Origin: an uncultured Eubacteriales bacterium | GTDB taxonomy: Bacteria; Bacillota; Clostridia; Oscillospirales; Oscillospiraceae | DNA: 64,000 nt | Reading direction: 5' to 3' | NCBI GenBank assembly: GCA_949525845.1 | Contig: CATEPI010000006.1 | Coordinates: 33,917-97,916 of the forward strand | In this document: positions 1-14,176 of the stretch, one piece after another | Layout of the letters: every line of letters begins with the position of its first letter | Numbering within the stretch: the first letter of the stretch is position 1 | Notes under the pieces: generated by a model | Database searches by the model: none | What the model saw: only the letters and a program-made list of their open reading frames with translations | Told to the model about the DNA's origin: nothing | Program-made: the position numbers and the translations under genes

Positions 1-68
1 ATAGAATGGATTGGTATTTCACAGACACACATCCCACATTCCCACAGAGACAGAAGGGGGCTATCCTT

Positions 69-1136
69 ATGCGCAAGCTGGTCATCGAGAGGGCCGCGGT
101 CAAGCACAACCTGTCCATCATCAAAGAGCGGGCCGCAGGGGCGGTCATCTACGGCGTCCTCACTGGCGACGGCGGAGGGGCGGGCATCGTCCCCATGGCC
201 AAGCTCCTCCGGGCGGAGGGCATCGGCCGCTTTGCCGTGTACGAGGTGAAGGAGGCGGAGAAGCTGCGCCAGGCCGGCTTTGAGGACGAAGAGATCCTCA
301 TGCTCCGCTCCACCACCGACCGGGAGGAGCTGGAGCAGCTGGTGGACCTGAACGTGGTGTGCACCATCTCCTCGGTGGACACCGGCCTGGCCCTCAACGC
401 CCTGGCAGAAAACCGGTCCACCGTGGCCTGCGCCCACATCCAGGTGGACACGGGTATGGGCTTTGGCGGCTTTCTGGTCGGCGAGCCGGAGAAGATTCTG
501 CTGGCCTACCGCTCCCTGCCCAACGTGGCCCTGGAGGGCATCTACACCCAGCTCCACGCCATGCGGGTGGGGGACCCGGAGTGCGCCCACCAGCTGGAGC
601 GGTTCCACCAGGTGCTGGACACCATCCACACCGCCGGGTTTGAGACAGGCACCGTCCACGCCGCCGGCTCCTTCGCCCTGCTCCACAACGACAGCGCCCG
701 GCTGGACGGCGTCCGGGCGGGCTCGGCCATCCTGGGCCGGTGCCGCCGCACCCGGGATGACCGGCTGAAGGCGGTGGGCTACGGCGAGGCCCCCCTGTCC
801 GAGGTCCGCTGGCTGCCCAAGGGCCATTCCGTGGGCACCTACCGGCCCATCACCCTGAAACGGCCCACCCGGGTGGCGGTGCTGCCCGTGGGCTATCAGA
901 ACGGTTTTGGCGTGGTCCGGCCCCGGGAGACCGGATTCTGGGCCCTGTGGCAGCAGTGGCGGCGTTCCAGAAAGCGGACGGTCCGCGTCGGCGGCCAGCG
1001 GGTGAAGCTTATCGGCCCCATCGGCGCCACCGAGACCCTGCTCAACGTCACCAACGTAAAGTGTTCCGCCGGCGACCTGGCCGTCTTTGATATCGACCCC
1101 ATCTTTGCCCGGGGCTTCGTCCGGGAGTTCCGGTAA
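69..1136 (+). CDS. Alanine-racemase-fold protein lacking the PLP-binding Lys (probable pseudo-enzyme)
   Basis: Alr motifs are recognisable (VDTGMG, VRAGSAILG, LPVGYQNGF), but AVVKANAYGHG reads GVLTGDGGGAG. Start placed at ATG 69 after GAAGGGGG. Confidence 0.8.
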   Translation: MRKLVIERAAVKHNLSIIKERAAGAVIYGVLTGDGGGAGIVPMAKLLRAEGIGRFAVYEVKEAEKLRQAGFEDEEILMLRSTTDREELEQLVDLNVVCTISSVDTGLALNALAENRSTVACAHIQVDTGMGFGGFLVGEPEKILLAYRSLPNVALEGIYTQLHAMRVGDPECAHQLERFHQVLDTIHTAGFETGTVHAAGSFALLHNDSARLDGVRAGSAILGRCRRTRDDRLKAVGYGEAPLSEVRWLPKGHSVGTYRPITLKRPTRVAVLPVGYQNGFGVVRPRETGFWALWQQWRRSRKRTVRVGGQRVKLIGPIGATETLLNVTNVKCSAGDLAVFDIDPIFARGFVREFR

Positions 1137-1141
1137 AAACA

Positions 1142-1232
1142 CCTCATCCGTCACGACCTGACGGTCGTGCCACCTTCCCCTAAAGGGGAGGGGTGCGCCA
1201 AAAAGCCTTCCCCCGAAGGGGGCGGATGAGGC
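1142..1232. repeat. REP-like two-hairpin palindrome doublet (CCGTCA-tagged)
   Basis: cctcatccgtca-[cacgacc/ggtcgtg]-ccaccttcccctaaagggga, then an inverted partial copy; same architecture as 46454-46612. Confidence 0.75.
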
Positions 1233-1267
1233 CCTTTCTGTTACAAAACATTAAGCGAGGTTTTATC

Positions 1268-2482
1268 ATGCCTGACCTGAAATTCCAGCCGCTGCTCTTC
1301 GGCGGCGATATCAACGTATACAGCGTGGCCCGGGCCTTCCACGAGGCCTACGGGGTGCGTTCCATCGCCTATGGCAAGTACCCATCCTTTCCCTGCCACG
1401 GCAGCGCCATCCTCGACTACCGGGTGTGCCCGGACAACGAGGACGAGGCCGCCTTCCGGCGTAACGTCCAGGCCGCGGCGGAGGAGTTCCCCCACAAGAA
1501 GATCATCCTGCTGGGCTGCGGGGACAGCTATGTCCAGCTGGCCGCCCACTGCAAGGACTCCCTGCCGGAAAATGTGATTGCCCCCTACATCGACGGCGGC
1601 CTGCTGGATACCCTCATCAACAAGGAGAAATTCTACCAGCTGTGCGACCAGCACGGCATCGACCACCCGGCCACCTTCATCTACGACAAATCCATGGGCC
1701 ACGACTTCTCCCTGCCTTGGGGCCCGCCCTACATCGCCAAGCCCGCCGACAGCGTGGCCTACTGGGCCTGCGGCGACCACTCCCTGGCCAAGGTATACAT
1801 CTGCCAGAGCTGGGAGGAGCTGCTGGAGAGCCTGGACCACGTCTACGCCGCCGGCTATCCGGACCACATGGTGCTCCAGGAGTTCATCCCCGGGGACGAC
1901 AGCTATATGCGGGTACTCACCAGCTACTCCGACCGGAACGCCCGGGTGACCACCATGTGCCTGGGCCATGTCCTGCTGGAGGAGCACTCCCCCCACGGCA
2001 TCGGCAACCACGCCGTCATTCTCACCGAGCGGGATGAGGAGCTGGAACAGAAAATCAAGGGGCTTCTGGAGTCCCTCCACTTTGTGGGCTTCTCCAATTT
2101 TGACATCAAATACGACCGCCGGGACGGCAAATACAAGGCCTTCGAGATCAACTGCCGCCAGGGCCGGAGCAACTACTACGTCACCGGCGCGGGGCATAAC
2201 ATCGCCCGGCTGGTGGTGGAGGACCGGGTAGAGGGGAAGGACCTCCCCTTCACCATGACGAAAAACCGCTCCCTGTGGCGGATGGTGCCCAAAAAGGTTG
2301 CGTTTAAATTCACCCCCAGGCAGTATCACGAGGAGATGCGGGCCCTTATCAAGGCGGGGGCGGATTCCCACTCCCTGGTGTATTCCAAAGACGCATCCCT
2401 GCGCCGCCGCCTACGGGTATGCAAAAACCACTTGGGCAACATCAAGCGGTTTGACCGGTACAATAAGGTACCGGAGGAGTAA
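1268..2482 (+). CDS. ATP-grasp carboxylate-amine ligase, D-aspartate ligase (Asl) family
   Basis: GGDINVYSVARAFHE, QEFIPGDD, FSNFDIKYD, FEINCRQGRS motifs; adjacent to an aspartate racemase. Confidence 0.85.
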   Translation: MPDLKFQPLLFGGDINVYSVARAFHEAYGVRSIAYGKYPSFPCHGSAILDYRVCPDNEDEAAFRRNVQAAAEEFPHKKIILLGCGDSYVQLAAHCKDSLPENVIAPYIDGGLLDTLINKEKFYQLCDQHGIDHPATFIYDKSMGHDFSLPWGPPYIAKPADSVAYWACGDHSLAKVYICQSWEELLESLDHVYAAGYPDHMVLQEFIPGDDSYMRVLTSYSDRNARVTTMCLGHVLLEEHSPHGIGNHAVILTERDEELEQKIKGLLESLHFVGFSNFDIKYDRRDGKYKAFEINCRQGRSNYYVTGAGHNIARLVVEDRVEGKDLPFTMTKNRSLWRMVPKKVAFKFTPRQYHEEMRALIKAGADSHSLVYSKDASLRRRLRVCKNHLGNIKRFDRYNKVPEE

Positions 2483-2502
2483 GTCTCTGACCGAACGCAC
2501 AC

Positions 2503-2633
2503 AAAAGCCCCCCTTGCCAAAGGGGGGAGGGCCGCGAAGCGGCGGGGGGATTCCGTCCACCGGCACGGCCCAGTTAAACGGAATCCCCCAGTCATTCGCT
2601 GCGCGAATGCCAGCCCCCTTTTGCAAGGGGGCC
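2503..2633. repeat. REP-like two-hairpin doublet (GGATTCCGT/ACGGAATCC ends)
   Basis: Inverted pair of units; the same two units occur in swapped order at 48613-48760. Confidence 0.8.
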
Positions 2634-2659
2634 ATCCACATCATCCAAAGGAGCATCCT

Positions 2660-3376
2660 ATGCAGTACCGTCTCGGCGTTCTTGGCGGCATGGGCCCCCA
2701 GGCCACCAACACCTTCTACCAATTTGTCATTGACCGCACCGCCGCCCGGTCTGACCAGGAGCACGTCAACGCCCTGATTCTCTCCGATGTGGACATGCCC
2801 GACCGCACCGCCGCCATCCTGGGCAGCGAGGAGGAGCGGGAGGCGGTGTACCGCCGCCTGCTGGCCGACGCCCGGCTGCTGGAAAACGCGGGGTGTACCT
2901 GCATCGCCGTCCCCTGCAACACCTCCCACTTCTTTCTGGACCGGGTGCAGGAGGGGGTCCGCGTTCCCATTCTCCACATGATTCGGGAGACCGCCCGGCT
3001 GCTGGCCGCCCGGGGGCTGCACCGGCCCGGCATCCTGGCCACCGACGGCACCATCCGGACCGGACTCTACCAAAAGGAATTTTCAGCCGCTGGAATACAG
3101 TCCGTTATCCCCACCCCTGAGGCTCAGGGGCTGGTAATGTCCCTTATCTACGACGACGTGAAGGCCGGCCGGGACGGCGACCCACAGAAGTTCGCCGCCA
3201 TCCACGAGGACCTGCTCTCCCAGGGCTGTGACTGCGGCGTGCTGGCCTGTACTGAGCTGTCGGTCTTCGCTGACCGGCACCACCTGCCCCCCTTCTACAC
3301 CGACGCCATGGCCGTCCTGGCCGAGCGGGCGGTGGAGGCCTGCCATAGGCCTCTGCGGCATATTTTTATCAAATAA
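2660..3376 (+). CDS. racD: Aspartate racemase (PLP-independent, two-Cys)
   Basis: GVLGGMGPQAT, PCNTSH and LACTELS motifs; RBS AAGGAG. Confidence 0.9.
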   Translation: MQYRLGVLGGMGPQATNTFYQFVIDRTAARSDQEHVNALILSDVDMPDRTAAILGSEEEREAVYRRLLADARLLENAGCTCIAVPCNTSHFFLDRVQEGVRVPILHMIRETARLLAARGLHRPGILATDGTIRTGLYQKEFSAAGIQSVIPTPEAQGLVMSLIYDDVKAGRDGDPQKFAAIHEDLLSQGCDCGVLACTELSVFADRHHLPPFYTDAMAVLAERAVEACHRPLRHIFIK

Positions 3377-3396
3377 TACTTAGAGGAGTAGCTATT

Positions 3397-4668
3397 ATGG
3401 ATAAAATAAAAGCCGACCCCCTGGCGCTAAACGCCGTCATCTGCGCCGTTTTAAAGGGGCCCAGCACCACCCCTGACGACTTCAAGCGGGCCACCCTGGT
3501 GGACAGCTTCTCTATGATCTACCAGAAATTCCCCGACTGGGCAGAGCCTGTCCCGGGGGACTTCTCCGTGTTAGGTATGCTGGAGAACATGCACACCCTC
3601 CACTTTCCCAACAACCCCGGCCGGGCGCCCATCCAGGTGGACGACTTCTCCTTTCTGGCCCGCTGCAAGCGGCTGAAGCGGCTGGATGTGGCCCGCACCA
3701 ACTTCTCCGACTGCTCCATCCTGCTCCAGCTGCCCTTTATGAGCTACGTCCACCTGCCCCCCAGAGAACAGCTCACCCACCTGGAGGTGCTGGACAAGCT
3801 GCCCTGGCGGCGGAGGGTGGACTTTCTCCCGCCGCCCCCCGCGCCTGTTCTGCCAAAGCCCAAGCCGGAGCCCAGTGAGATGGCCAGGGCCATTGTGGAG
3901 GAGATTAAACGGCGCACTGCTATGGACTGCTATAAGCTGACCATCCGGCCTGACAGCCAACCCGGGCTGTTTGACAGCAAATTTGGCGGCTTCCCCTACT
4001 GGGACCCGACCCTGCCCTACCCGGTGGACAGCGCAGGGGAGAAGCTGGTGCTGCTGGCTCAGATCAATTTTGACCAGTTCCCGGCTGACGACCCTCTGCC
4101 CCAGGGCGGGATGCTCCAGTTTTTCGTGGGGCAGGACGACTGCTTTGGCATGGAATTCAGCGGCGGCCGGGCCGACGGCTACCGGGTGGTGTACCATGAG
4201 AACATCGACCCCTCCATCACCGAGGAACAGCTCAAGCCGCTGGACATCCCTACTCAGGCAGAGACGGAGATCTTCCCCCTGGCAAGGCCCATAGCAGTGA
4301 CTATGGAAAAGAGTACCAGCTATATGGGCCCGGTGGACGGGCGGTTTGACGACCTCTTTTCCCAGGTGTACCAGGCCGTCACCGGGCAGGCCTCGAGAAA
4401 GGGGATACACCACTGGGGTACCCTGGAGCGCAACGACAGAGATTATCTGTGGGACCAGCTCGACACCGACGGCCACCATCTGCTGGGCTACCCCTACTTC
4501 ACCCAGGAGGACCCCCGGGAGGGTCTCTATGAGACCCTGCTCTTTCAGATGGACTCTGACGACGGTATCCTTTGGGGTGACGCCGGGGTGGGAAATTTCT
4601 TCATCGACCTGGAAAAGCTGAAACAGCGGGACTTTTCCGACGTGTTCTACACCTGGGACTGTTGCTGA
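3397..4668 (+). CDS. LRR-like N-terminus fused to a YwqG/DUF1963 domain
   Basis: LKRLDVARTNFSDCSILLQL is LRR-like; a Pro-rich linker follows; then SKFGGFPY, LLAQINF, LGYPYFTQEDPR, LLFQMDSD, WGDAGVGNFFI and YTWDCC, typical of DUF1963. Confidence 0.8.
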   Translation: MDKIKADPLALNAVICAVLKGPSTTPDDFKRATLVDSFSMIYQKFPDWAEPVPGDFSVLGMLENMHTLHFPNNPGRAPIQVDDFSFLARCKRLKRLDVARTNFSDCSILLQLPFMSYVHLPPREQLTHLEVLDKLPWRRRVDFLPPPPAPVLPKPKPEPSEMARAIVEEIKRRTAMDCYKLTIRPDSQPGLFDSKFGGFPYWDPTLPYPVDSAGEKLVLLAQINFDQFPADDPLPQGGMLQFFVGQDDCFGMEFSGGRADGYRVVYHENIDPSITEEQLKPLDIPTQAETEIFPLARPIAVTMEKSTSYMGPVDGRFDDLFSQVYQAVTGQASRKGIHHWGTLERNDRDYLWDQLDTDGHHLLGYPYFTQEDPREGLYETLLFQMDSDDGILWGDAGVGNFFIDLEKLKQRDFSDVFYTWDCC

Positions 4669-4698
4669 TTTCCACACTCATCAAGCGAGGTGTTTAAC

Positions 4699-6648
4699 GT
4701 GAAACACACCCTTAACGACTATATCGCCCTGCTGGAGGAGCGCTCCCTGCTGGCCGCCCCCGTCCCGGCGGATGTAAACCGGTCCGCCCCGGTGGAGCTG
4801 GTGTCCTACGACTCCCGGGAGGTGGTCCCCGGCACGCTGTTTCTCTGCAAGGGGGCCCACTTTAAGGAGGAGTTCCTGCAAATGGCCCGGGACAGGGGAG
4901 CCATCGCCTATGTGAGCGAGCAGCCCTACCCGTCCGTCAACCTGCCCTGTCTCCAGGTAAACGACATGCGCCTGACCATCGCCCCCCTGGCCGACCTGTT
5001 TTTTGACCACCCCTCGGGCAGACTGAAGGTGATCGGCCTGACGGGCACCAAGGGCAAATCCTCCACCGCCTACTACCTGAAGCACATTCTGGATGACTAT
5101 ATGGCCGAGAAAAGGGGGGCTGAAAGCGGCCTTATCTCCTCCATCGACACCTACGACGGGGTGGAGCGGTTCGAGTCCCACATCACCACCCCCGACGCCC
5201 TGGACCTCCAGCGCCATTTTGCCCGCGCGGTGGAGGCCGGGCTGGAGTACCTCACCATGGAGGTGTCCAGCCAGGCGCTGAAATACCACCGCTCCCTGTG
5301 CACCGACTTCGCCGCCGCCGTCTTTCTCAACATTGGCTACGACCACATCTCTCCCATCGAGCACACCGACTTTGAGGACTATTTTTCCGCAAAACTGCGG
5401 ATTTTTGCCCAGGGACAGATTAACTGCGTCAATCTGGACTGCGACCACGCCGACCGTATCCTGTCCGCCGCCCAAGCAGCGGGGGCCCCGGTGTACACCT
5501 TCTCCCAGAAAAATCCGGAGGCCGACGTCTACGCCTCCCAGGTGCGCAAGCGGGGGGAGGACATTCTGTTTCAGGTACGCACCCGGCGGTATGAGCGGGA
5601 GTTCCGGCTCACCATGCCGGGGCTGTTCAACGTGGAAAATGCCCTGGCCGCCATCGCGGTGTGTGAGGGTCTGCAAATTCCCCAGCGGCACATCTACACC
5701 GGCCTGGCCAAGGCCCGGGTGCCGGGACGGATGGAGGTGTTCTCCAACGCGGACAGCACCGTCACCGCCCTGGTGGACTACGCCCACAACCGCATGTCCT
5801 TCGAGACCCTGTTCCGCTCTGTTCAGGCCGAGTACCCCGGGCGGCGGATTGTCACTGTTTTCGGCTGTCCCGGCCTGAAGGCCCTGGACCGCCGCCGGGA
5901 TCTGGGGGAAATTGCGGGAAAATACTCCGACCTGGTGGTCCTCACCGAGGAGGACAGCGGGGAGGAGGACACCCTGTCCATCTGTCAACAGATTGCCGCC
6001 CACGTGGCGGAGCAAGGGGGAGCGTACCGCATTGAGCCCAACCGGGGGGAGGCCATCCGCCAGGCCGTTTTGAGCTGTGACCGGCCCTCCATCCTCCTCA
6101 TCACCGGCAAGGGCCGGGAGACCCGGCAGAAACGGGGCCGGGAGTATGTGGAGGTGCCCACCGATGTGGAGTATGTCCAGACCTTTTTGCGGGAGTACGA
6201 CGGGGCCCGCGCTCCGGACGGCATAGACCGGGTGCGCAGCCTGCTGGAGCTGCTGCCCGCCCTGAAGCGGCACCAGGGGAAAAAGGCGGCAGTATGGAGC
6301 GCCCACCCGGGGAAGGACCTGCTTCAGGACGCCGATGCCCTGCGGACGGTGGGGCTGGATGTGGTTCTGGTCTCACTGGGGGAGGACGCCCCCGGGGACG
6401 CGGACTATCTGGTGTATTTCACCGAACTGGGAGAGGACCGCCGGCTCATGCCGGGCCGGGTGGATTTTAGGCGCGCGGAGGAGCTGCTGGGGACCCTCAG
6501 CGGCGAACCGGCCGCCGCCGTCCGCCGCTGCCTGGACGCCCTCGCCGCCGGAGCGGAGGAGGCCGCCGTGCTGGACAGCACAGCCGAACATGCCCTGTTG
6601 CTGTATATGCTGGACCAGCGGACGCCGGGGATTGTAATTGCCAGATAA
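4699..6648 (+). CDS. murE: MurE-type UDP-MurNAc-tripeptide synthetase with a C-terminal degenerate ArgB-like domain
   Basis: P-loop TGTKGKSST, TTPD, MEVSS, FNVEN, VPGRME, VDYAHN; about 140 extra C-terminal aa resemble an amino-acid-kinase fold. Start placed at GTG 4699 behind GAGGTG. Confidence 0.85.
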   Translation: MKHTLNDYIALLEERSLLAAPVPADVNRSAPVELVSYDSREVVPGTLFLCKGAHFKEEFLQMARDRGAIAYVSEQPYPSVNLPCLQVNDMRLTIAPLADLFFDHPSGRLKVIGLTGTKGKSSTAYYLKHILDDYMAEKRGAESGLISSIDTYDGVERFESHITTPDALDLQRHFARAVEAGLEYLTMEVSSQALKYHRSLCTDFAAAVFLNIGYDHISPIEHTDFEDYFSAKLRIFAQGQINCVNLDCDHADRILSAAQAAGAPVYTFSQKNPEADVYASQVRKRGEDILFQVRTRRYEREFRLTMPGLFNVENALAAIAVCEGLQIPQRHIYTGLAKARVPGRMEVFSNADSTVTALVDYAHNRMSFETLFRSVQAEYPGRRIVTVFGCPGLKALDRRRDLGEIAGKYSDLVVLTEEDSGEEDTLSICQQIAAHVAEQGGAYRIEPNRGEAIRQAVLSCDRPSILLITGKGRETRQKRGREYVEVPTDVEYVQTFLREYDGARAPDGIDRVRSLLELLPALKRHQGKKAAVWSAHPGKDLLQDADALRTVGLDVVLVSLGEDAPGDADYLVYFTELGEDRRLMPGRVDFRRAEELLGTLSGEPAAAVRRCLDALAAGAEEAAVLDSTAEHALLLYMLDQRTPGIVIAR

Positions 6649-6654
6649 TATTAC

Positions 6655-6813
6655 GGGGTACAGGCAGAGCGCCTGTACCCCATGTTTATTTCGAAAAGCT
6701 TCCGAATGTAGGGCAAGGGCTCTGCCCTTGCCTGTCCTTACCCGCCCTGACCTCATTCCGATGCCGTTTTATCCCCTTCCGGGGATAGGCAGGGGTAGAA
6801 CCCCTGCCCTACA
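6655..6813. repeat. GTAG-type REP cluster
   Basis: gtagggcaagggctctgcccttgcc (6708) and inverted aggcaggggtagaacccctgccctac (to 6812), plus the hairpin ggggtacaggc/gcctgtacccc. Confidence 0.8.
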
Positions 6814-6874
6814 TGACGTACCGGCCGGTATTTTTGGAGGCTTTCTCCTTTATGAAAAGGAAATGCCCAGTAAT

Positions 6875-7045
6875 TTATTCAGCCATCCTTTTCTCATACT
6901 TTTTCAGAAGGTCCTCGATTGCTTCATCAATCAAGCGGGATTTTGGAACCCGTGTTTTTCTTGAAAGCTCATTGAAAGGCTCCACTAACTCATTTGCCAG
7001 AGAAGAAATTAACTTTGTTCTGTTTACAAGATTTGTTCCAGCCAT
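6875..7045 (-). CDS. Ribbon-helix-helix protein, 56 aa (not in ORF track)
   Basis: Manual translation MAGTNLVNRTKLISSLANELVEPFNELSRKTRVPKSRLIDEAIEDLLKKYEKRMAE; RBS AAGAGG. Confidence 0.8.
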   Translation of the reverse strand: MAGTNLVNRTKLISSLANELVEPFNELSRKTRVPKSRLIDEAIEDLLKKYEKRMAE

Positions 7046-7132
7046 ATGCTCGCCTCTTATGCACTATATAGTTACTACATGATGCAATTAGGTTACCATT
7101 AAAAATTCTTTTCGTCAATTACTCACCATCTA

Positions 7133-7161
7133 TTGACTTAGTAGTTACTACCTAGTACACT
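7133..7161 (+). promoter_or_regulatory. Sigma70 promoter with a palindromic operator in the spacer
   Basis: TTGACT-17-TACACT; GTAGTTACTAC at 7141-7151; second TAGTTACTAC at 7069-7078. Confidence 0.7.
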
Positions 7162-7178
7162 ATAGGTGGGGTGGTAAT

Positions 7179-7319
7179 ATGAAAAAAGCGGAAAAGAACG
7201 TCACGGTGGGAATGTCCCAGGAGCTCTACAGCGCATTGCAGCGGCTGGCAGAGGAGGACTGCCGGTCCGTCCCCAGCTACATCCGCATGGTCCTGCGGGA
7301 ACACACGAAGAAAAGATGA
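7179..7319 (+). CDS. Arc-like ribbon-helix-helix protein, 46 aa (not in ORF track)
   Basis: MKKAEKNVTVGMSQELYSALQRLAEEDCRSVPSYIRMVLREHTKKR; shares the LAE..RS..SYI..VLREH pattern with 33440-33604. Confidence 0.75.
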   Translation: MKKAEKNVTVGMSQELYSALQRLAEEDCRSVPSYIRMVLREHTKKR

Positions 7320-7340
7320 TTTCCGCCCCGGGTCGGACAT

Positions 7341-7371
7341 AAAAAACCGCCTCTTTTGGAGGCGGTTTCTT
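7341..7371. terminator. Bidirectional intrinsic terminator
   Basis: aaaaaaccgcctc-ttttg-gaggcggtttct between convergent genes. Confidence 0.7.
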
Positions 7372-7757
7372 CATGGAACACCGAGGCATTGCTTCAGTCC
7401 CTCCTGAAGGACCTGCGAGAAGTTGATCCCCGCCTTGACCGCCAGCTCATTGAGATAGTTGGGGATGGTTACATTTTTCCGCACAGCGCGCATATCATTG
7501 GCCCGGCGGTAGGCATCAAAATCCACCAGAGCAAAGACGGCAATTTCCCCCTCCCCGCACTTCGGCAGGGCAGAGGAGGCCGGCGGCAGCTCCTGCCCCA
7601 TATCCTGGAGGGTAATTCCGCACAGGCTGATGGCGTCGGCGGCCATTTCCATCGCGTCGGCCAAATCCTGGCCTTCGGTGTTGATGTTAAAATCCGGGGC
7701 ATATACCAGATAGCCCCCTTCACTGGGCGTCAGTATAATGGGATACGCAGTTTTCAC
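7371..7757 (-). CDS. hicB: HicB antitoxin
   Basis: YLVYAPDFNINTEGQDLADAMEMA N-terminus; RKNVTIPNYLNELA-GINFSQVLQE RHH C-terminus. Confidence 0.9.
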   Translation of the reverse strand: MKTAYPIILTPSEGGYLVYAPDFNINTEGQDLADAMEMAADAISLCGITLQDMGQELPPASSALPKCGEGEIAVFALVDFDAYRRANDMRAVRKNVTIPNYLNELAVKAGINFSQVLQEGLKQCLGVP

Positions 7758-7776
7758 AGCGGGAAGCCTCCTTCCG

Positions 7777-7950
7777 TTATTTCAGACCCCGGCGCCGGAT
7801 AATCGCCTTGGCGGTCTGCTCGTTGATCTCCTTATGACGAGGAATTGCTTCCACCTCTTTGCCGTCTGTCACAATCATGTGGCTGCCGCCCTCCCGAATC
7901 AGCCACCATCCATTCCTGTTGAACAGCTTCAGTAGATCCCTCTGTTTCAT
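7777..7950 (-). CDS. hicA: HicA toxin (mRNA interferase)
   Basis: MKQRDLLKLFNRNGWWLIREGGSHMIV-IPRHKEINEQTAKAII; conserved GSH motif. Confidence 0.9.
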   Translation of the reverse strand: MKQRDLLKLFNRNGWWLIREGGSHMIVTDGKEVEAIPRHKEINEQTAKAIIRRRGLK

Positions 7951-7970
7951 TCTATCCACTCCACACCACA

Positions 7971-7999
7971 ATTATACGCATCCAATGCGCATTTGTCAA
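7971..7999 (-). promoter_or_regulatory. hicAB promoter with an imperfect palindromic operator
   Basis: Minus strand TTGACA-17-TATAAT; TACGCAT-CCA-ATGCGCA overlaps the spacer. Confidence 0.8.
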
Positions 8000-8018
8000 A
8001 TGGGATCTTTACAGTGGT

Positions 8019-8612
8019 TTACCCGTTAAACTTCCCCATCCCCCGGTCGATGCCCTGGTCCAGAATGCACTCGATGGCGTCGGCGGCCCGTTTGACGGCG
8101 GCGTCGATGGCCTTTTTGTCCTCTCCCACGAACTTGCCCAGCACCCAGTCGGCCATATCGTAATCGGGGTGGGGCTTCTCTCCCACCCCCACCCGCAGGC
8201 GGGGGAATTGGTCGGTGCCCAGGTGCTGGATGATGTTTTTCAGCCCGTTGTGCCCCCCGGCGGAGCCCTTCACCCGGATGCGCAGCCGGCCCACCGGCAG
8301 GGCGGTGTCGTCGGACACCACCAGCACCCGGTCGGGGGGAATTTTGTAAAAATCCGCCGCCTGGCGCACTGCCTCCCCGGACAGATTCATATAGGTGATG
8401 GGCTTCATCACCAGCACCTTCTCCCCGGAAATGGTCAGCACATTGGTCAGCGCCTTGAATTTCAGCCGCTGGATGGGCTTTCTCTGGCGCTCGGCCACCT
8501 CGTCGGCCACCATAAAGCCCACATTGTGCCGGGTGTTCTCATACTTGTCCCCGGGATTGCCCAGGCAGACCAGCAGCCAGCTGACACCCCCGCTGTCTTT
8601 TTTGAAAAACAT
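8019..8612 (-). CDS. pth: Peptidyl-tRNA hydrolase
   Basis: LGNPGDKYENTRHNVGF, KPITYMNLSG, GSAGGHNGLK. Confidence 0.95.
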   Translation of the reverse strand: MFFKKDSGGVSWLLVCLGNPGDKYENTRHNVGFMVADEVAERQRKPIQRLKFKALTNVLTISGEKVLVMKPITYMNLSGEAVRQAADFYKIPPDRVLVVSDDTALPVGRLRIRVKGSAGGHNGLKNIIQHLGTDQFPRLRVGVGEKPHPDYDMADWVLGKFVGEDKKAIDAAVKRAADAIECILDQGIDRGMGKFNG

Positions 8613-8662
8613 GGTCGTCACCTCATAAAAATGGGGCGGCTCAGTGGCCGCCCCGGTCAAGC

Positions 8663-9646
8663 TTACAGGAAAAGCGGGGAGACGGAGGTCTCCATGTAGA
8701 TGTGGCTGATGGCCTCGGCAAAGAGGTGGGCCACCGAGATGTAGCGCAGCTTGTCGCATTGGACATCGGGCTTGGCGGGAATGGTGTTGAGGAAGACCAC
8801 CTCGTCCAGCACGCTCTCGTTGATGCGGCGGATGGCGGGACCGGACAGGATGCCATGGGTGGCGCAGGCGGTAATGTCTCTTGCGCCGCCGATCTCCACC
8901 AGGGCCTTGGCAGCGTGGCACAGGGAGCCGCCGGTGTCCACCATGTCGTCCAGCAGGATGACCCGCTTGTCCCGCACGTCGCCGATGATGTTCATTACCT
9001 CGGAGGAATTGGCCTTCTGCCGGCGCTTGTCCACAATGGCCAGGGGCATATTCAGCTTCTGGGCGAAGGCCCGGGCCCGGGCCACCGAGCCCACGTCGGG
9101 GGAGACCACCATGGTGTCCTCGTGGTCGTCCTTGAACTTGCGGTTGAAGTAGTCCACAAAGATGGGGGAGCCCAGCATGTTGTCCACCGGGATATCGAAG
9201 AAGCCCTGGATCTGGTTGGCGTGGAGGTCCATGGTGAGCACACGGTCGGCGCCGGCGGTGGTGATCAGGTTGGCCACCAGCTTGGCGGAGATGGGGTCCC
9301 GGGGCTTGGTCTTCCGGTCCTGCCGGGCATAGCCGAAGTAGGGGATCACAGCGGTGATCCGGCCGGCGGACGCCCGCTTCAGGGCGTCGATGATAATAAG
9401 CAGCTCCATCAGAGCGTCGTTGACAGTGTTGAGCTTTCCATCCTTTACGAAGGAGCAGGTGGACTGGACCACGAAGACGTCGGAGCCCCGGACGGTCTCA
9501 TAGATCGAGACAAAGTTCTCCCCGTCGGAGAAAGCGCCCACCTCCGAGTTGCCCAGAGGGATTCCCAACTCTTTGCAGATGTCCCTGGCCAGAGCGGGGT
9601 TGGAATTGCCCGTGATGACCTTGATGTCCTTCCCATGTGCTATCAT
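8663..9646 (-). CDS. prs: Ribose-phosphate pyrophosphokinase
   Basis: FSDGE, PYFGYARQDRK, DLHANQIQGFF, VSPDVG, DDMVDTGGS. Confidence 0.97.
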   Translation of the reverse strand: MIAHGKDIKVITGNSNPALARDICKELGIPLGNSEVGAFSDGENFVSIYETVRGSDVFVVQSTCSFVKDGKLNTVNDALMELLIIIDALKRASAGRITAVIPYFGYARQDRKTKPRDPISAKLVANLITTAGADRVLTMDLHANQIQGFFDIPVDNMLGSPIFVDYFNRKFKDDHEDTMVVSPDVGSVARARAFAQKLNMPLAIVDKRRQKANSSEVMNIIGDVRDKRVILLDDMVDTGGSLCHAAKALVEIGGARDITACATHGILSGPAIRRINESVLDEVVFLNTIPAKPDVQCDKLRYISVAHLFAEAISHIYMETSVSPLFL

Positions 9647-9723: not shown

Positions 9724-10407
9724 TCACTTTTTCCCTTTTCTTTTCCGGTTCTCCCCGGCCCAGCCCTCCTTGACCTCCTGGCGGGTCCGGCCAATGGCCA
9801 TGGCGTCCTCCGGGACGCGCCGGGTCACCGTGGTGCCGGCGGCGATAAAGGCCCCGTCCTCCACCGTCACCGGGGCGACGAAGTTGGTGTTGCAGCCCAC
9901 AAATACATGGCTGCCGATGGTGGTGCGGTGCTTCTGGAAGCCGTCGTAGTTGCAGGTAACAGTGCCGCAGCCGAAGTTGCAGTCCTCACCCACGTCACTG
10001 TCCCCCACATAGGTGAGGTGGGCCATCTTGGTCCCCCGGCCCAGATTGCAGTTTTTCAGCTGGACAAAGGCCCCGATTTTGGAGCCCTCCCCCACCACGC
10101 AGTGGGGCCGGATGTGGGTGTAGGGGCCGATCTGGCAGTCCGCCCGGAGCACGCTCTCCTCACACTGGGAGGCGTTGACGGTGCATCCGTCCTCCACGGT
10201 GGAGTCGGTAATCATGGTCTGGGGGCCGATGCAGCAGTTTTTCCCGATCACCGTCTTCCCCCGAAGGATGGTGCCGGGGAGGAGCAGGGTACCCGCCCCC
10301 ACGGTGACCTCCTCTTCCACATAGACGGCGGCGGGGTCCATCATCAGCACGCCTTGGGCTAGAAGCTGTTCCCGCTTGGCCTGAAGCGCGGCCGAATAAT
10401 CGTTCAT
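9724..10407 (-). CDS. glmU: Stand-alone C-terminal (acetyltransferase) half of GlmU
   Basis: Hexapeptide repeats, IGPYTHIRP, HLTYVGD, NFGCGTVTCNYDG, FVGCNTNFVAPV; 227 aa with its own RBS (GGAGG) and no nucleotidyltransferase domain. Confidence 0.85.
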   Translation of the reverse strand: MNDYSAALQAKREQLLAQGVLMMDPAAVYVEEEVTVGAGTLLLPGTILRGKTVIGKNCCIGPQTMITDSTVEDGCTVNASQCEESVLRADCQIGPYTHIRPHCVVGEGSKIGAFVQLKNCNLGRGTKMAHLTYVGDSDVGEDCNFGCGTVTCNYDGFQKHRTTIGSHVFVGCNTNFVAPVTVEDGAFIAAGTTVTRRVPEDAMAIGRTRQEVKEGWAGENRKRKGKK

Positions 10408-10630
10408 TCTGTTCCTCCCATATCAACCGGACAGGCGGCCCGGTATTTGCCGCCTGTAATTGAGTTTAACAAAGTTTTCCCAGTGGGCATTATAACACAG
10501 TTTGCGCTTTTTTTCCACCATTAGGGAATTATTTTCAAAAAGTTTAAATTGCCGCTTTTTCATCGGAATCATTCCAAATCCGACAAAAACCGCCCTCCAC
10601 AGTCTATGGAAGGCGGTCATTTGTCTTTTG

Positions 10631-11140
10631 TCAGCAGGCGGGCGCCAGCGGACGCACCCCAAGCCGCTCCCGCAGCCTGGAGGGCCGGCAGACCCGGGAC
10701 ATCTCCAGTCCGGCGCAGACGGTGTCCACCAGGTCCACCACCCAAGCCTCCAGCGACCGGGGCAGCGCGCCGCCCAGGGGCCACATGTGGGAGAGGATAA
10801 TGTTTTGCTCCTTGTCGGAGAGGGGGGTGAGGGCAGCGGCGTTCCGGGCGGCGAACCGGGGGTGGTCGAAGCACTGGTTGCCGGGGTGGGCCGATTTGTC
10901 CCTGGAGTCGTAGAGATACAGGTCGTGAAGCAGGGCTCCCCGGACGGCAGCGTGCACATCCATGCGGAGCAGCCGGGCCACCCGGTAGGTACTGAAGGCC
11001 ACAAACAGGGAGTGGTCCAGCGTAGTCACCGGACCGTGGTGCTTCCACCGGCCCATCATCCGCACCGGCTCGGAGTCCAGCAGTTCCCTGGTCAGCTCCA
11101 CAAACTCCCGTTCCCGCAGCTTACGGCTTAAACGGCTCAT
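10631..11140 (-). CDS. HD-domain protein
   Basis: HHGPVTTLDHS, GALLHDLYLYD, HPRFA, IILSHMWPL. Confidence 0.85.
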   Translation of the reverse strand: MSRLSRKLREREFVELTRELLDSEPVRMMGRWKHHGPVTTLDHSLFVAFSTYRVARLLRMDVHAAVRGALLHDLYLYDSRDKSAHPGNQCFDHPRFAARNAAALTPLSDKEQNIILSHMWPLGGALPRSLEAWVVDLVDTVCAGLEMSRVCRPSRLRERLGVRPLAPAC

Positions 11141-11247
11141 TGGAATCAGTCCTTTCGTCGTAATCGCAGGGTGTTCCCCGCGCAGTTGGTTCTGACCCTA
11201 TCATACACTATCTTCGCACCGTTGTCATCTGAGAATTTTTTACAATT

Positions 11248-12495
11248 TTACCGGGTCTGCCCCGCCCCTTTTATCACAAATTTAAAGGAACAAAGCTCTC
11301 CCAGGCCCAAAGGGCCCCTTGCGTGCAACTTTTGGGTGGAAATCCCCATCTCGCAGCCCAGGCCGAACTCCCCGCCGTCGGTGAAGCGGGTGGAGGCGTT
11401 CCAGTACACCGCCGCGCTGTCCACCTGGTTCAGGAAGGCATGGGCCGCCTGCTCCTCGCCGGTGACGATGGCCTCCGAGTGGCCGGTAGAGTGGGCGGCA
11501 ATGTGGGAAATGGCCTCCTCCAGACAGTCCACCACCTTAACGGCCATAATGTAATCCAGAAACTCGGTGTCAAAGTCGGCGGGCCCGGCGGGGGTGCCGT
11601 CGATGATGTTCGCCGCTTCCGGGTCCAGCCGCAGCTGGACCGGATGGCCGAAGCGGTTGTGCTCCAGCCGGTCCTTCAGCTTGGGCAGAAACTCCCCGGC
11701 CACCTCCCGGTGGACCAGGCAGACCTCGGCGGCGTTGCACACGCTGGGCCGGGAGCACTTGGCGTTTTCGAGGATGTCCAGGGCCATGTCCTGATCGGCC
11801 CACCTGTCCACATAGACGTGGCAGATGCCGGTGCCCGTCTCCAGCACGGGGACGGCGGCGTTGTCCACACAGGCCCGAATCAGCCCCGCGCCCCCCCGGG
11901 GGATAAGCAGGTCCACCAGCCCCCGGGCGGCCATCAGCTCGTTGGCGGAGGCCCGGGAGGTGTCCTCCACCAGCTGGAGGGCGTCGGGGGACAGGCCGGC
12001 GGTGGAAAGCCCCTCCTTCAAAGCGGACACAATGGCGGCGGCGGAGCGGTGGGCCTCCTTGCCCCCCCGCAGGACACAGGCGGAGCCCGCCTTCAGGGCC
12101 AGGGCGGCGGCGTCGCTGGTGACGTTGGGCCGGGACTCGTAAATAATGGCGATTACCCCCATGGGGACGGCGGTCTTCTCAATGACCAGCCCGTTGGGCC
12201 GCTCCACCCGGCTGAGGACCGCCCCCACCGGGTCGGGCAGCTCCGCCACCTCCCGCAGGCCGGCGGCCATGCCGGCAATTCGGTCGGGGCTGAGGGCCAG
12301 CCGGTCCAGCATTACCTCGGAGATGGTCCCCCGGGCCGCCTCCAGGTCCAGGGCGTTGGCGGCCAGGATGTCGTCACACCGGGCCTCCAGCGCATCGGCC
12401 ATGGCCAGCAGGGCCCGGTTTTTGGTTGCCGTGTCCGCCGCCGCCATATCCCACTTGGCCGCCCGGGCCTTTTGGAGCAGTTCCTGTGTTGTCAT
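11248..12495 (-). CDS. proA: Gamma-glutamyl phosphate reductase
   Basis: [46 protein letters not shown]. Confidence 0.97.
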
Positions 12496-12516
12496 ATTCT
12501 GTCACCTCAAATTTTT

Positions 12517-12580
12517 GTAGGGGCGGCCTGTGGCCGCCCGTGTGTTCCGGCTTATGCGGGCGGCCAAAGGCCGCCCCTAC
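12517..12580. repeat. GTAG-type REP doublet
   Basis: gtaggggcggcctgtggccgccc and inverted gggcggccaaaggccgcccctac. Confidence 0.85.
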
Positions 12581-12590
12581 ATACACCCCA

Positions 12591-13184
12591 TCAGTGGGGC
12601 CACACCAGGCTCACCGCGCACAGGGCCAGGGACAGGGCCATTGCCACGTCCACCGTCCGGCGGTGGCGGGCAAAGAGCTTTTGCAGCGACGCCCCGGCGA
12701 ACAGCCACACCAGATTGCACACCGGCCCGGTGAAGGGGAGGAACAGCCCCACCGCCAGCAGGGCCCAGATCGAGCTGTTGTAGGGCAGCACATAGCCGCT
12801 CAGGGCGGCGATGCAAAAGATGATTACCTTCACATTGGTCAGATTGACCAGCAGCCCCGTGAGGAAGGTGGGAGCCGCCGGGTCCCGGTCCGGGTCGGCC
12901 CCGCCGGGGCGCAGCATGTGCCAGGCCATCCACAGCAGGTAGGCCGCTCCCACCCAGGACAGCGCCCCCACATACCGGTCCAGGGCCGCCCCCAGCAGCC
13001 AGGTCACGGCCACCGCCCCCATGGAATCCAGAAAGAAGCCGCAGAACAGCCCCCGCCACTGCCGCAGGGCGGGCCCTCTCCCATACCGCAGGGCTGCCCC
13101 CAGGGAACAGAGATTGGCGGGTCCGGGGGTGATGGCCCCCACAAAGCAGTAGATTAAAAAGCTGGGAATCAGTGAAATCGGCAT
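12591..13184 (-). CDS. LysE/RhtB-family exporter (EamB-like)
   Basis: ITPGPANLCSL, GAAYLLWMAW, LLVNLTNVKVIIF. Confidence 0.85.
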   Translation of the reverse strand: MPISLIPSFLIYCFVGAITPGPANLCSLGAALRYGRGPALRQWRGLFCGFFLDSMGAVAVTWLLGAALDRYVGALSWVGAAYLLWMAWHMLRPGGADPDRDPAAPTFLTGLLVNLTNVKVIIFCIAALSGYVLPYNSSIWALLAVGLFLPFTGPVCNLVWLFAGASLQKLFARHRRTVDVAMALSLALCAVSLVWPH

Positions 13185-13297
13185 GGCTGCCACCGTCCTT
13201 TCCGTTGGTGGCTCTATCCTAGCAGAAAAAATAACAGTTGAAAAGCGAATGTTTTTAAAGTATAATATTGATATAGTCAATGATTGGAGGAATCCCC

Positions 13298-14176
13298 ATG
13301 GAGCTGAAAAATCTGCGGACCCTGCTGGCCGTGGTGGACCAGGGCAGCTACCAGAGAGCGGCGGAGCACCTGGGCTACACTCAGTCCACCATCACCGTGC
13401 AGATCCAGCAGCTGGAGGAGGAGCTGGGAGTCCCCCTCTTTCAGCGGGCGGGCCGGCGGATGGTACTCACCCCGGTGGGGGAGCAGGCCCTGGCCCAGGC
13501 CCGGGAGCTGCTGCTGGCCGCCGACCGGCTCTCTCAGCTGGGCCAGGCGGGGCGGGAGCCCCTGGGCACCCTGCGGGTGGACATGGCCGAGACCCTGCTG
13601 TGCTACCGGATGCAGCCAGTGATTCAGCAATTCCGCCGGCTGGCCCCCCAGGTCCGGCTTATCATCCGCAGCCGCAACTGCCTGCGCATCCCGGAAAACG
13701 TCCACACCGGGGCCTGCGACCTGGGGGTGGGCTACGACATGGACTGGAACCGGGAGACGCTGGAGGTGGAGTCTATGGGCCGCTACCCCATCGTCCTGCT
13801 GGCCTCGCCGGAGTTTGCCCACCCCGACTTCGTCACCCCCGGCCAGCGCAAGCCGGTTTCCCTTATCACCGACGAGCCGGACAGCCTTTTCCGCCGGAAT
13901 CTGGAGGACTACCTCCGCCGCCGGAGCATCACTCTGGACGCCACCCTGGAGCTGTGGAGCATTGAGACCATCAAGCGGTGTGCCATGTCCAACCTGGGCT
14001 TTACCTACCTGCCCCGGTTCGCCGCCCGGGAGGAGCTGGCCGACGGACGTCTGGTGGAGCTGGAGGCCCCCATCTCCGGGGTCCCGGCCCCCACCCTGTG
14101 CGCCTGGCGGAAAAACCGCTGGGTCACCCCGGCCATGGAGCTGTTTATGAATCTGCTCCGGGAGAGCATCTCCTAG
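13298..14176 (+). CDS. LysR-family regulator, divergent from the exporter
   Basis: GSYQRAAEHLGYTQSTITVQIQQLEEELGVPLF. Confidence 0.93.
   Translation: MELKNLRTLLAVVDQGSYQRAAEHLGYTQSTITVQIQQLEEELGVPLFQRAGRRMVLTPVGEQALAQARELLLAADRLSQLGQAGREPLGTLRVDMAETLLCYRMQPVIQQFRRLAPQVRLIIRSRNCLRIPENVHTGACDLGVGYDMDWNRETLEVESMGRYPIVLLASPEFAHPDFVTPGQRKPVSLITDEPDSLFRRNLEDYLRRRSITLDATLELWSIETIKRCAMSNLGFTYLPRFAAREELADGRLVELEAPISGVPAPTLCAWRKNRWVTPAMELFMNLLRESIS

Follow-up and report, generated by a model that had tools for sequence, protein, structure and literature searches.

The gene at the start of the 64,000-nucleotide stretch analyzed here (the window; contig CATEPI010000006.1 of an uncultured Eubacteriales bacterium, family Oscillospiraceae) is of a type that RefSeq, GenBank and IMG label "alanine racemase," and its product, which we call AlrL, is very probably a conserved non-racemase pseudoenzyme. 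AlrL has kept the fold of alanine racemase (Alr) and has lost the lysine that binds the cofactor pyridoxal 5′-phosphate (PLP), together with three further catalytic residues, and the residues found in their place are conserved across orthologs. AlrL represents a real, previously undescribed family of pseudo-racemases. The fuller statement, that AlrL is a non-catalytic partner or regulator linked to the synthesis of peptidoglycan side branches, is evenly poised between the findings that favor it and those that do not.

An Intact Protein With the Alr Fold

The AlrL open reading frame runs from the ATG at position 69 to a stop codon ending at 1136, and encodes 355 amino acids with zero frame breaks, full-length and uninterrupted as the initial annotation of this DNA had described it; the same length is found in 69 of 79 orthologs. 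Both halves of the protein are recognized by Pfam (PF01168 Ala_racemase_N, 9.8e-42; PF00842 Ala_racemase_C, 3.1e-9). Against the alanine racemase model TIGR00492, AlrL scores 123.4 bits, below the cutoff of 168, and it falls far under the cutoffs of all other NCBIfam alr, dadX and vanT models. The structure prediction that had been proposed as a check gave a confident Alr-like model: AlphaFold2, with 112 homologs as input, returned a predicted local distance difference test score (pLDDT) of 92 and a predicted template modeling score (pTM) of 0.86. Pfam, AlphaFold2 and Foldseek agree on the two-domain architecture of Alr, an N-terminal eight-stranded barrel followed by a C-terminal beta domain. 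The best Foldseek matches of the model are VanTg and Alr, all of them alanine, serine, lysine or broad-spectrum racemases, with template modeling (TM) scores of 0.85–0.88. An Rfam search of window positions 1–9000 detected neither a leader nor a riboswitch.

Replacement of Four Catalytic Residues

Motif correspondences were taken from HMMER alignments of AlrL to VanTg (4ECL), Alr (4Y2W) and Clostridioides difficile Alr (4LUY). Residues of Alr are given in the numbering of the Geobacillus stearothermophilus enzyme (K39, Y43, K129, R136, H166, S204, R219, G221, I222, and Y265′). The motif VVKAEAYGHG pairs with GVLTGDGGGAG of AlrL, with Lys falling on T32, Tyr on G36 and His on A38. Similarly, HIKIDTGMHRLG pairs with HIQVDTGMGFGG (generic motif HxKxDTGMxRxG), with Lys on Q125 and Arg on F132, and FTHL pairs with YTQL, with His on Q161. 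T32, G36, F132, and Q161 of AlrL occupy the sites of K39, Y43, R136, and H166. These alignments bear out each of the three motif changes reported in the initial annotation (GVLTGDGGGAG, HIQVDTGMGFGG, and YTQ). It had also counted both the Lys and the Arg of HIQVDTGMGFGG as losses; both are indeed absent, but loss of the Lys (equivalent to K129) carries little weight, because that residue is variable even in the nearest Lys-bearing relatives.

The replacement residues are strongly conserved. Among the 79 orthologs, position 32 is T in 69, S in 7, A in 2, N in 1, and K in none; position 36 is G in 70, Q125 and Q161 are present in all 79, and F132 in 74. At the same four sites, 86 Lys-bearing relatives have K in 100%, Y in 99%, R in 100%, and H in 100%. 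In a type-II site test, each of the 355 positions was asked for conservation of at least 85% within the 86 Lys-bearing relatives and within the 79 orthologs. Just four positions pass in each group with a residue that differs between the two, namely K32T, Y36G, R132F, and H161Q. At a further 40 positions the two groups reach the threshold and share the residue; among them are S201, R216, G218, S219, H197, and D127-T128-G129. A rough hypergeometric estimate of the chance that four changes out of 44 co-conserved positions would all hit sites belonging to eight cofactor contacts is 70/135751, or about 5e-4. The four changed sites are those that in Alr hold the aldimine, the phosphate and the O3′/carboxylate, and that relay protons.

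The remainder of the cofactor site is retained. S201, R216, G218, and S219 are invariant or nearly so in the orthologs and are conserved in the Lys-bearing group as well; R216 is found in 79/79 orthologs, and the DTG.G.GGF loop is likewise invariant. The phosphate contacts (S201, G218), the arginine facing the pyridine nitrogen (R216) and the second catalytic base (Y276) are thus kept, although P0366 and P0343, two Lys-less homologs at greater distance, have S or T at the Y276 position. A320 and T321 sit at the M312′ and D313′ sites of Alr, both of which are lost.

From its sequence, AlrL is predicted to be unable to form the PLP aldimine. Two lysines were considered as relocated Schiff-base residues and rejected. 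K142 is the sole invariant lysine, lies on the helix after a barrel strand, and is not conserved family-wide. K251, in a WxPKGH motif, is nearly invariant, but it is no substitute for the Schiff-base lysine because the Lys-bearing sister P0133 has it too. Across the 79 orthologs and the wider family, no alternative conserved base or lysine was found.

Conservation and Age of the Lysine Loss

The ortholog scan, in which each species was represented by a single genome, yielded 80 loci, and 79 full-length AlrL orthologs were extracted from them. They come from Lawsonibacter, Flintibacter, Pseudoflavonifractor, Flavonifractor, Intestinimonas, Colidextribacter, Muriventricola, and many metagenome-assembled genomes, share 62–99% identity with the window copy, and are all intact. 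Pairwise ratios of nonsynonymous to synonymous substitution (dN/dS) against the window copy range from 0.06 to 0.3, and in the same species pairs the amino-acid identity of AlrL equals or exceeds that of the downstream neighboring enzymes. The lysine loss is therefore conserved and under purifying selection, and the opposite picture, of homologs that keep the lysine beside a single decaying copy, does not apply: none of the orthologs has Lys at position 32. AlrL is not decaying, and the replacement residues are themselves under purifying selection.

More distant relatives were collected by an exhaustive HMMER search, which gave 241 clusters (50% identity) at E below 1e-30. Most full-length relatives (340–390 amino acids) keep K, Y, R, and H, and together make up a distinct clade of "short Alr" proteins, which pass TIGR00492 only marginally. 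In a maximum-likelihood tree of 110 representatives, AlrL lies in a clade with 95% support that contains 19 Lys-less and 2 Lys-bearing members, and the whole tree requires at least three to four changes of Lys state. AlrL is part of an old Lys-less lineage of Oscillospiraceae, and this lineage derives from Lys-bearing racemase-like genes located behind a femX-like gene. A second abundant Lys-less clade, which includes Sporobacter termitidis and one complete Oscillospiraceae genome, has the motifs DLSANAxGMG, GLGRYGF, FT(T/S)F, and SVGYYHGFG. This DLSANA-type clade has lost only K39 and H166; Y43 is variable, and K129, R136, Y265′, M312, and Y354 are kept. What the two clades have in common is accordingly the absence of the lysine and the histidine, and the window lineage has gone further. 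Two apparent fusions encountered in the search (P0143 and P0192) are assembly chimeras, with adapter-derived peptides and a truncated Alr part.

Expression in the Mouse Gut

In two mouse-gut metatranscriptome runs, contigs covering AlrL were found at 98–99% identity. Two of these contigs (690–1345 and 725–1345) cross the AlrL stop codon and the 131-bp spacer behind it and reach the gene for an ATP-grasp ligase, and another (2524–5163) covers the genes for a racemase, a DUF1963 protein and a MurE-type ligase further downstream (Table 1). Depth is zero at 6423–6669, adjoining a predicted terminator. AlrL is transcribed in the mouse gut, apparently together with the ligase gene. Overall, the gene gives rise to a well-folded, expressed, and strongly conserved protein with the Alr fold.

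Table 1. AlrL, its altered and retained sites, and the genes and elements downstream (window coordinates)
Feature	Position	Strand	Evidence
Ribosome-binding site GAAGGGGG, 8 nt ahead of the ATG at 69	53..60	+	Direct sequence reading
AlrL, Alr-fold protein without PLP lysine (355 amino acids, P0001)	69..1136	+	Pfam, AlphaFold2, Foldseek, metatranscriptome contigs
Codons T32–G36 (TGDGG) in place of the PLP-lysine motif K-A-N-A-Y	162..176	+	HMMER alignment, ortholog counts
Q125–F132 of HIQVDTGMGF; F132 replaces the Arg binding PLP O3′ and the substrate carboxylate	441..464	+	Alignment, ortholog counts
Q161 in place of the (F/Y)TH His	549..551	+	Alignment, ortholog counts
Kept cofactor cradle S201, R216, G218, S219 (Geobacillus S204, R219, G221, I222)	669..725	+	Conservation in both groups
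Y276 in PVGYQNGF, site of the second catalytic base Tyr265′	894..896	+	Y in 78/79 orthologs
Intergenic spacer, 131 bp, GC-rich hairpins, plus-strand terminator absent	1137..1267	+	Hairpin scan; crossed by RNA-run contigs
ATP-grasp carboxylate-amine ligase, candidate D-Asp ligase	1268..2482	+	Weak Pfam ATP-grasp_3 match, AlphaFold2, fold
Asp/Glu-family racemase with both catalytic Cys (C86, C197)	2660..3376	+	TIGR00035; Cys motifs CNTSH, ACTE
DUF1963 protein	3397..4668	+	Pfam 2.4e-55; only in some syntenic loci
MurE-type ligase with C-terminal truncated ArgB remnant	4690..6648	+	TIGR01085, 312 bits (cutoff 257)
Terminator-like hairpin ending the block, 11-bp stem then T-run	6655..6681	+	RNA-run depth 0 at 6423–6669

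The Ligase Block Downstream of AlrL

AlrL is followed in the window by four genes on the same strand, encoding the ATP-grasp ligase, the Asp/Glu-family racemase, the DUF1963 protein and MurE, and then by the terminator-like hairpin. At a locus 99% identical to the window (L001), the genes upstream of AlrL are divergent, which makes AlrL the first gene of the block.

The ATP-grasp protein has only weak matches in Pfam and NCBIfam, is named "ATP-grasp domain-containing protein" by PGAP, and gave zero matches in a sequence search of the PDB. Its AlphaFold2 model is confident (pLDDT 86), has a clear ATP-grasp fold, and is structurally closest to the L-amino-acid ligase 3VOT and to PylC (4FFL), an enzyme that acylates the epsilon-amine of Lys with D-ornithine. 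The racemase gene scores 205.9 bits against TIGR00035 (cutoff 93) and has the features of a cofactor-independent two-Cys aspartate racemase. It also narrowly passes the model of the cysteate racemase CuyB (197 versus 190), so that its substrate is not settled by sequence. The DUF1963 (YwqG-like) protein, encoded between the racemase and MurE, has an N-terminal region of about 190 amino acids that weakly resembles leucine-rich repeats, and its gene is present, fragmentary or absent among species that share the block.

The MurE of the block passes the murE subfamily model and lies below both the Lys-type and the diaminopimelate (DAP)-type equivalog cutoffs. At the position of the specificity motif, DNPR or D(D/N)P(N/A), it reads EEDSG, and thus does not have the motif of an L-Lys-adding MurE. 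Its C-terminal extension of about 150 amino acids (about 6160–6645) corresponds to ArgB (acetylglutamate kinase) without the middle of the domain. At two more distant loci (L096, 10351–12747, and L097), a full-length ArgB (TIGR00761, 233 bits) is joined to MurE, and BLASTP aligns the window extension with the ArgB domain of L096 (8e-13 and 4e-8). Fusion to an enzyme of the ornithine pathway hints that the MurE substrate may be neither DAP nor Lys, and possibly L-ornithine.

Other elements lie in and around the block. GC-rich hairpin elements, probably multi-copy, occur in the spacers at about 1160–1225, 2503–2631, and 6706–6814 (inverted repeats I13 and I1). The depth of RNA-run contigs rises 5–10-fold at 2471–2717 and many contigs break there, as with a dispersed repeat of the repetitive extragenic palindromic or miniature inverted-repeat transposable element type. 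Between the MurE terminator and pth-prs, the minus strand encodes a HicB-like antitoxin (7371–7757) and a HicA toxin (7777–7971); the pair is absent from locus L031, which is without the ligase block.

Gene Neighborhoods Across the Family

Contexts were placed on a tree of 89 loci, made up of the 79 orthologs and 10 more distant homologs. In 66 of the 89, an ATP-grasp gene follows AlrL at a distance of no more than a few hundred bases, normally with the racemase and MurE next; at one locus (L058), MurE follows AlrL directly. A crown clade of 74 rows (99% support) carries the ligase block, nested exceptions aside. The same four genes are found at deep divergence in L096 and L097, where AlrL is 54% identical to the window copy, its partners are 59%, 52%, and 56% identical, and murC lies directly upstream. 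The junction between AlrL and the block persists across different upstream neighbors, namely miaB, PNP/MtaD, and murC.

The Lys-bearing members of the short clade have a neighborhood of their own. In 6/6 independent contexts that were fetched (L087, L091, L093, L094, L102, and L103, unrelated genomic contexts within Oscillospiraceae), a FemAB-family gene precedes the Alr-like gene by 12–51 bp on the same strand. The NCBIfam model that it matches best is FemX, the UDP-MurNAc-pentapeptide-lysine N6-alanyltransferase; the sixth context is a short contig with the FemX C-terminus only (E 3e-26). Lys-bearing genes beside FemX and Lys-less genes beside the ATP-grasp ligase thus both adjoin the kind of enzyme that attaches the first side-branch residue to the stem peptide. 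Several of the femX-linked Lys-bearing proteins have a residue other than Tyr at the Tyr265′ position. No description was found of a two-gene module of femX and a Lys-bearing short Alr-like gene.

Proposed Function of AlrL and Alternative Explanations

A link between AlrL and peptidoglycan branch synthesis is plausible, neither exclusive nor proven. It is supported by the recurrence of the block at deep divergence, by an AlrL-ligase junction that outlasts changes upstream, and by the femX linkage of the Lys-bearing sisters; it is weakened by the contexts with mutL and dtd and by relatives without the block, described below. In the mechanism that we propose, AlrL would no longer racemize amino acids and would most likely serve as a non-catalytic ligand-binding or partner subunit, the hints of a partner coming from the gene neighborhood. 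Since the phosphate and pyridine cradle is kept and the substitutions are frozen, the former PLP/amino-acid pocket may have been remodeled to bind a small phosphorylated or amino-acid ligand. AlrL might then assist or regulate the step that puts the side branch onto the peptidoglycan stem peptide, with branch racemization presumably supplied by the neighboring cofactor-independent racemase. The retained role as a ligand sensor or scaffold that the initial annotation had put forward is likewise an inference.

A bolder version, which we hold to be rather unlikely, extends this role to the whole short Alr-like clade of Oscillospiraceae. Its members, Lys-bearing or not, would be dedicated partners of FemX-type transferases or Asl-type ligases, and the partner role would be what selection maintains. 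Such a role would explain several independent lysine losses without loss of the gene. If it is true, no pseudo-racemase subunit would have been described before AlrL in the synthesis of cell-wall precursors.

The most serious alternative, though an unlikely one, is that AlrL is conserved and non-catalytic and has nothing to do with peptidoglycan, its position by the block being an accident of insertion beside a stable housekeeping gene. Several findings point this way and weigh against a cell-wall role. The most stable neighbor of the Lys-less genes is the divergent miaB, and this miaB/AlrL anchor is common to all Lys-less clades, with varying genes downstream: mutL-miaA-hfq in the DLSANA-type clade and a third Lys-less clade, dtd with a metallo-beta-lactamase (MBL) hydrolase gene and a radical S-adenosylmethionine (SAM) gene in lineages with AlrL 62–68% identical, and the Asp block elsewhere. 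Neither the mutL nor the dtd contexts have a cell-wall gene nearby. In the AlrL tree, L096, which has the block, branches first, and the dtd-type loci form a grade between two block-bearing groups. Within the crown clade the block is absent from the AlrL locus in L016, L024, L019, and L031, which represent at least three nested lineages; in L031, from Colidextribacter sp. OB.20, the flanking genes are the same as in the window. The block-less copies of AlrL are intact, have the same motifs, and show dN/dS of 0.11–0.2, as in block-linked copies. The case for a cell-wall role is limited in two further ways: the ATP-grasp gene is a candidate D-Asp ligase by its context and fold, which are consistent with that function without proving it, and the RNA evidence consists of assembled metatranscriptome contigs, possibly containing DNA, although the coverage gaps that follow MurE speak against a uniform carry-over of DNA. 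The ligase block is younger and narrower in distribution than the Lys-less family, and AlrL is not specific to the block. The initial annotation had placed AlrL at the head of a D-Asp peptidoglycan operon; what stands of this is that AlrL is the first gene, that RNA contigs span the junction, and that the block recurs at 54% identity, whereas a family restricted to the block does not. Against an unrelated role, the union of AlrL and the block survives upstream changes down to that divergence, the Lys-bearing sisters are linked to femX in every context fetched, and contigs from the RNA runs run across the AlrL-ligase junction.

Two observations on these variant loci may be added. The gap between AlrL and dtd, which encodes a D-aminoacyl-tRNA deacylase and is thus itself related to D-amino acids, is 3–121 bp (L080, 3561–5068; L083, 6513–8039; L098, 6857–8387). 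In L016, a gerA-type spore germination operon (10236–13986; GerA Pfam 6e-144) replaces the ligase block downstream of AlrL.

It is improbable that AlrL is still an enzyme. Such an enzyme would hold PLP or pyridoxamine 5′-phosphate (PMP) with no Schiff base, depend on another cofactor, or work without any, and its reaction, different from that of Alr, would have an amino acid or the stem-peptide branch as substrate. Retention of S201, R216, G218, S219, and Y276, and substitutions that are invariant rather than drifting, would fit a pocket that has been remodeled and not abandoned. However, Y43, R136, and H166 are gone along with the lysine, Y276 is not kept in distant Lys-less homologs, and the search for another conserved base or lysine found none. 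Alr in which the lysine is changed to alanine is inactive unless an amine is added, which also speaks against such an activity.

A prozyme-like role is more doubtful still, and we consider it highly improbable. The active sites of Alr lie at the dimer interface, where one chain contributes the lysine and its partner chain Tyr265′, and AlrL could in principle pair with a catalytic paralog of Alr in a heterodimer, donate Tyr276 to the partner site, and activate or regulate the partner. The near-invariance of Y276 (78/79 orthologs) would agree with this. However, the M312′ and D313′ equivalents are lost (A320, T321), Y276 gives way to S or T in P0366 and P0343, and no Alr paralog is present in the window or the fetched flanks; YggS aside, no second Alr-like reading frame was found in the flanks of 86 loci. 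Finally, a decaying pseudogene or a sequencing artefact, for which nothing speaks except the loss of catalytic residues, can be dismissed because of the 79 intact orthologs, dN/dS well below 1, invariant replacements, a confident fold, and RNA coverage.

Implications of a Lys-less Racemase-Like Family

Full-text literature searches found no description of an alanine-racemase pseudoenzyme or of a Lys-less alanine racemase family, and nothing on the peptidoglycan type of Flintibacter. The "alanine racemase" label on AlrL affects a large group of abundant gut Clostridia. Metabolic reconstructions that use AlrL as a source of D-alanine are probably wrong, and the supply of D-Ala in these organisms needs checking. 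AlrL is also a very clean natural pseudoenzyme, with four catalytic residues removed, the rest frozen, and the lysine repeatedly lost in one clade. The combinations found here, of femX with an Alr-like gene, of AlrL with the ligase, racemase, and MurE, and of AlrL with dtd, offer an entry to the building of peptidoglycan branches.

Comparison With Known Systems

AlrL shares its two-domain fold with Alr and the serine racemase VanT (EC 5.1.1.1; 1SFT, 4ECL), and has in common with Alr the DTGxGxxGF loop, the equivalents of Arg219 and Ser204, and, in this ortholog, the equivalent of Tyr265′. It differs from Alr in lacking Lys39, Tyr43, Arg136, and His166, and in scoring under the TIGR00492 cutoff. 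Compared with canonical Alr, it is about 30 residues shorter, is without the GRxxMD motif, and has an additional helix at residues 290–301. Because defining features of Alr fail in this way, with Tyr265′ and Arg219 present and the lysine and the Tyr43/Arg136/His166 set absent, AlrL should not be filed as an alanine racemase.

The Lys-bearing sister group consists of femX-linked short Alr-like proteins (such as P0468, P0502, P0520, P0476, and P0444), which belong to the same short clade at 35–45% identity. They resemble AlrL in length, in the peculiarities of the C-terminus, and in adjoining an enzyme that adds a side branch. Unlike AlrL, they have all of K, Y, R, and H, reach the TIGR00492 cutoff only marginally, and follow femX instead of preceding an ATP-grasp ligase.

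The D-Asp cross-bridge of Enterococcus faecium and Lactococcus lactis is made by the ATP-grasp ligase Aslfm/AslA together with RacD (Bellais et al., 2006, as cited in PMC13631041). As in the window block, an ATP-grasp ligase is combined with an Asp/Glu-family racemase, and the window adds a MurE-type ligase. The Asl and RacD systems are not known to contain an Alr-like component. The window block differs further in that its ligase is only a candidate Asl ortholog, its MurE has EEDSG and not a Lys- or DAP-type motif, and an ArgB remnant is attached.

Non-enzymatic proteins with a fold-type III barrel are also exemplified by YggS/PLPBP. Unlike AlrL, YggS/PLPBP is a single domain of about 230 amino acids that binds PLP through a conserved lysine, and related genomes (L081 and L100) encode YggS separately.

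The antizyme inhibitor AZIN1 is a dead paralog of ornithine decarboxylase, a fold-type III enzyme, that has lost cofactor use and catalysis and has a non-catalytic binding role. Unlike AlrL, AZIN1 is eukaryotic, goes back to a decarboxylase, and acts through antizyme as its known partner, whereas the hints to a partner of AlrL come from its gene neighborhood. Like AlrL, it is a paralog of a fold-type III PLP enzyme in which the cofactor and catalytic residues were lost and the fold was retained under purifying selection. The nearest concept for AlrL is that of the dead fold-type III PLP-enzyme paralogs, of which antizyme inhibitor is an example.

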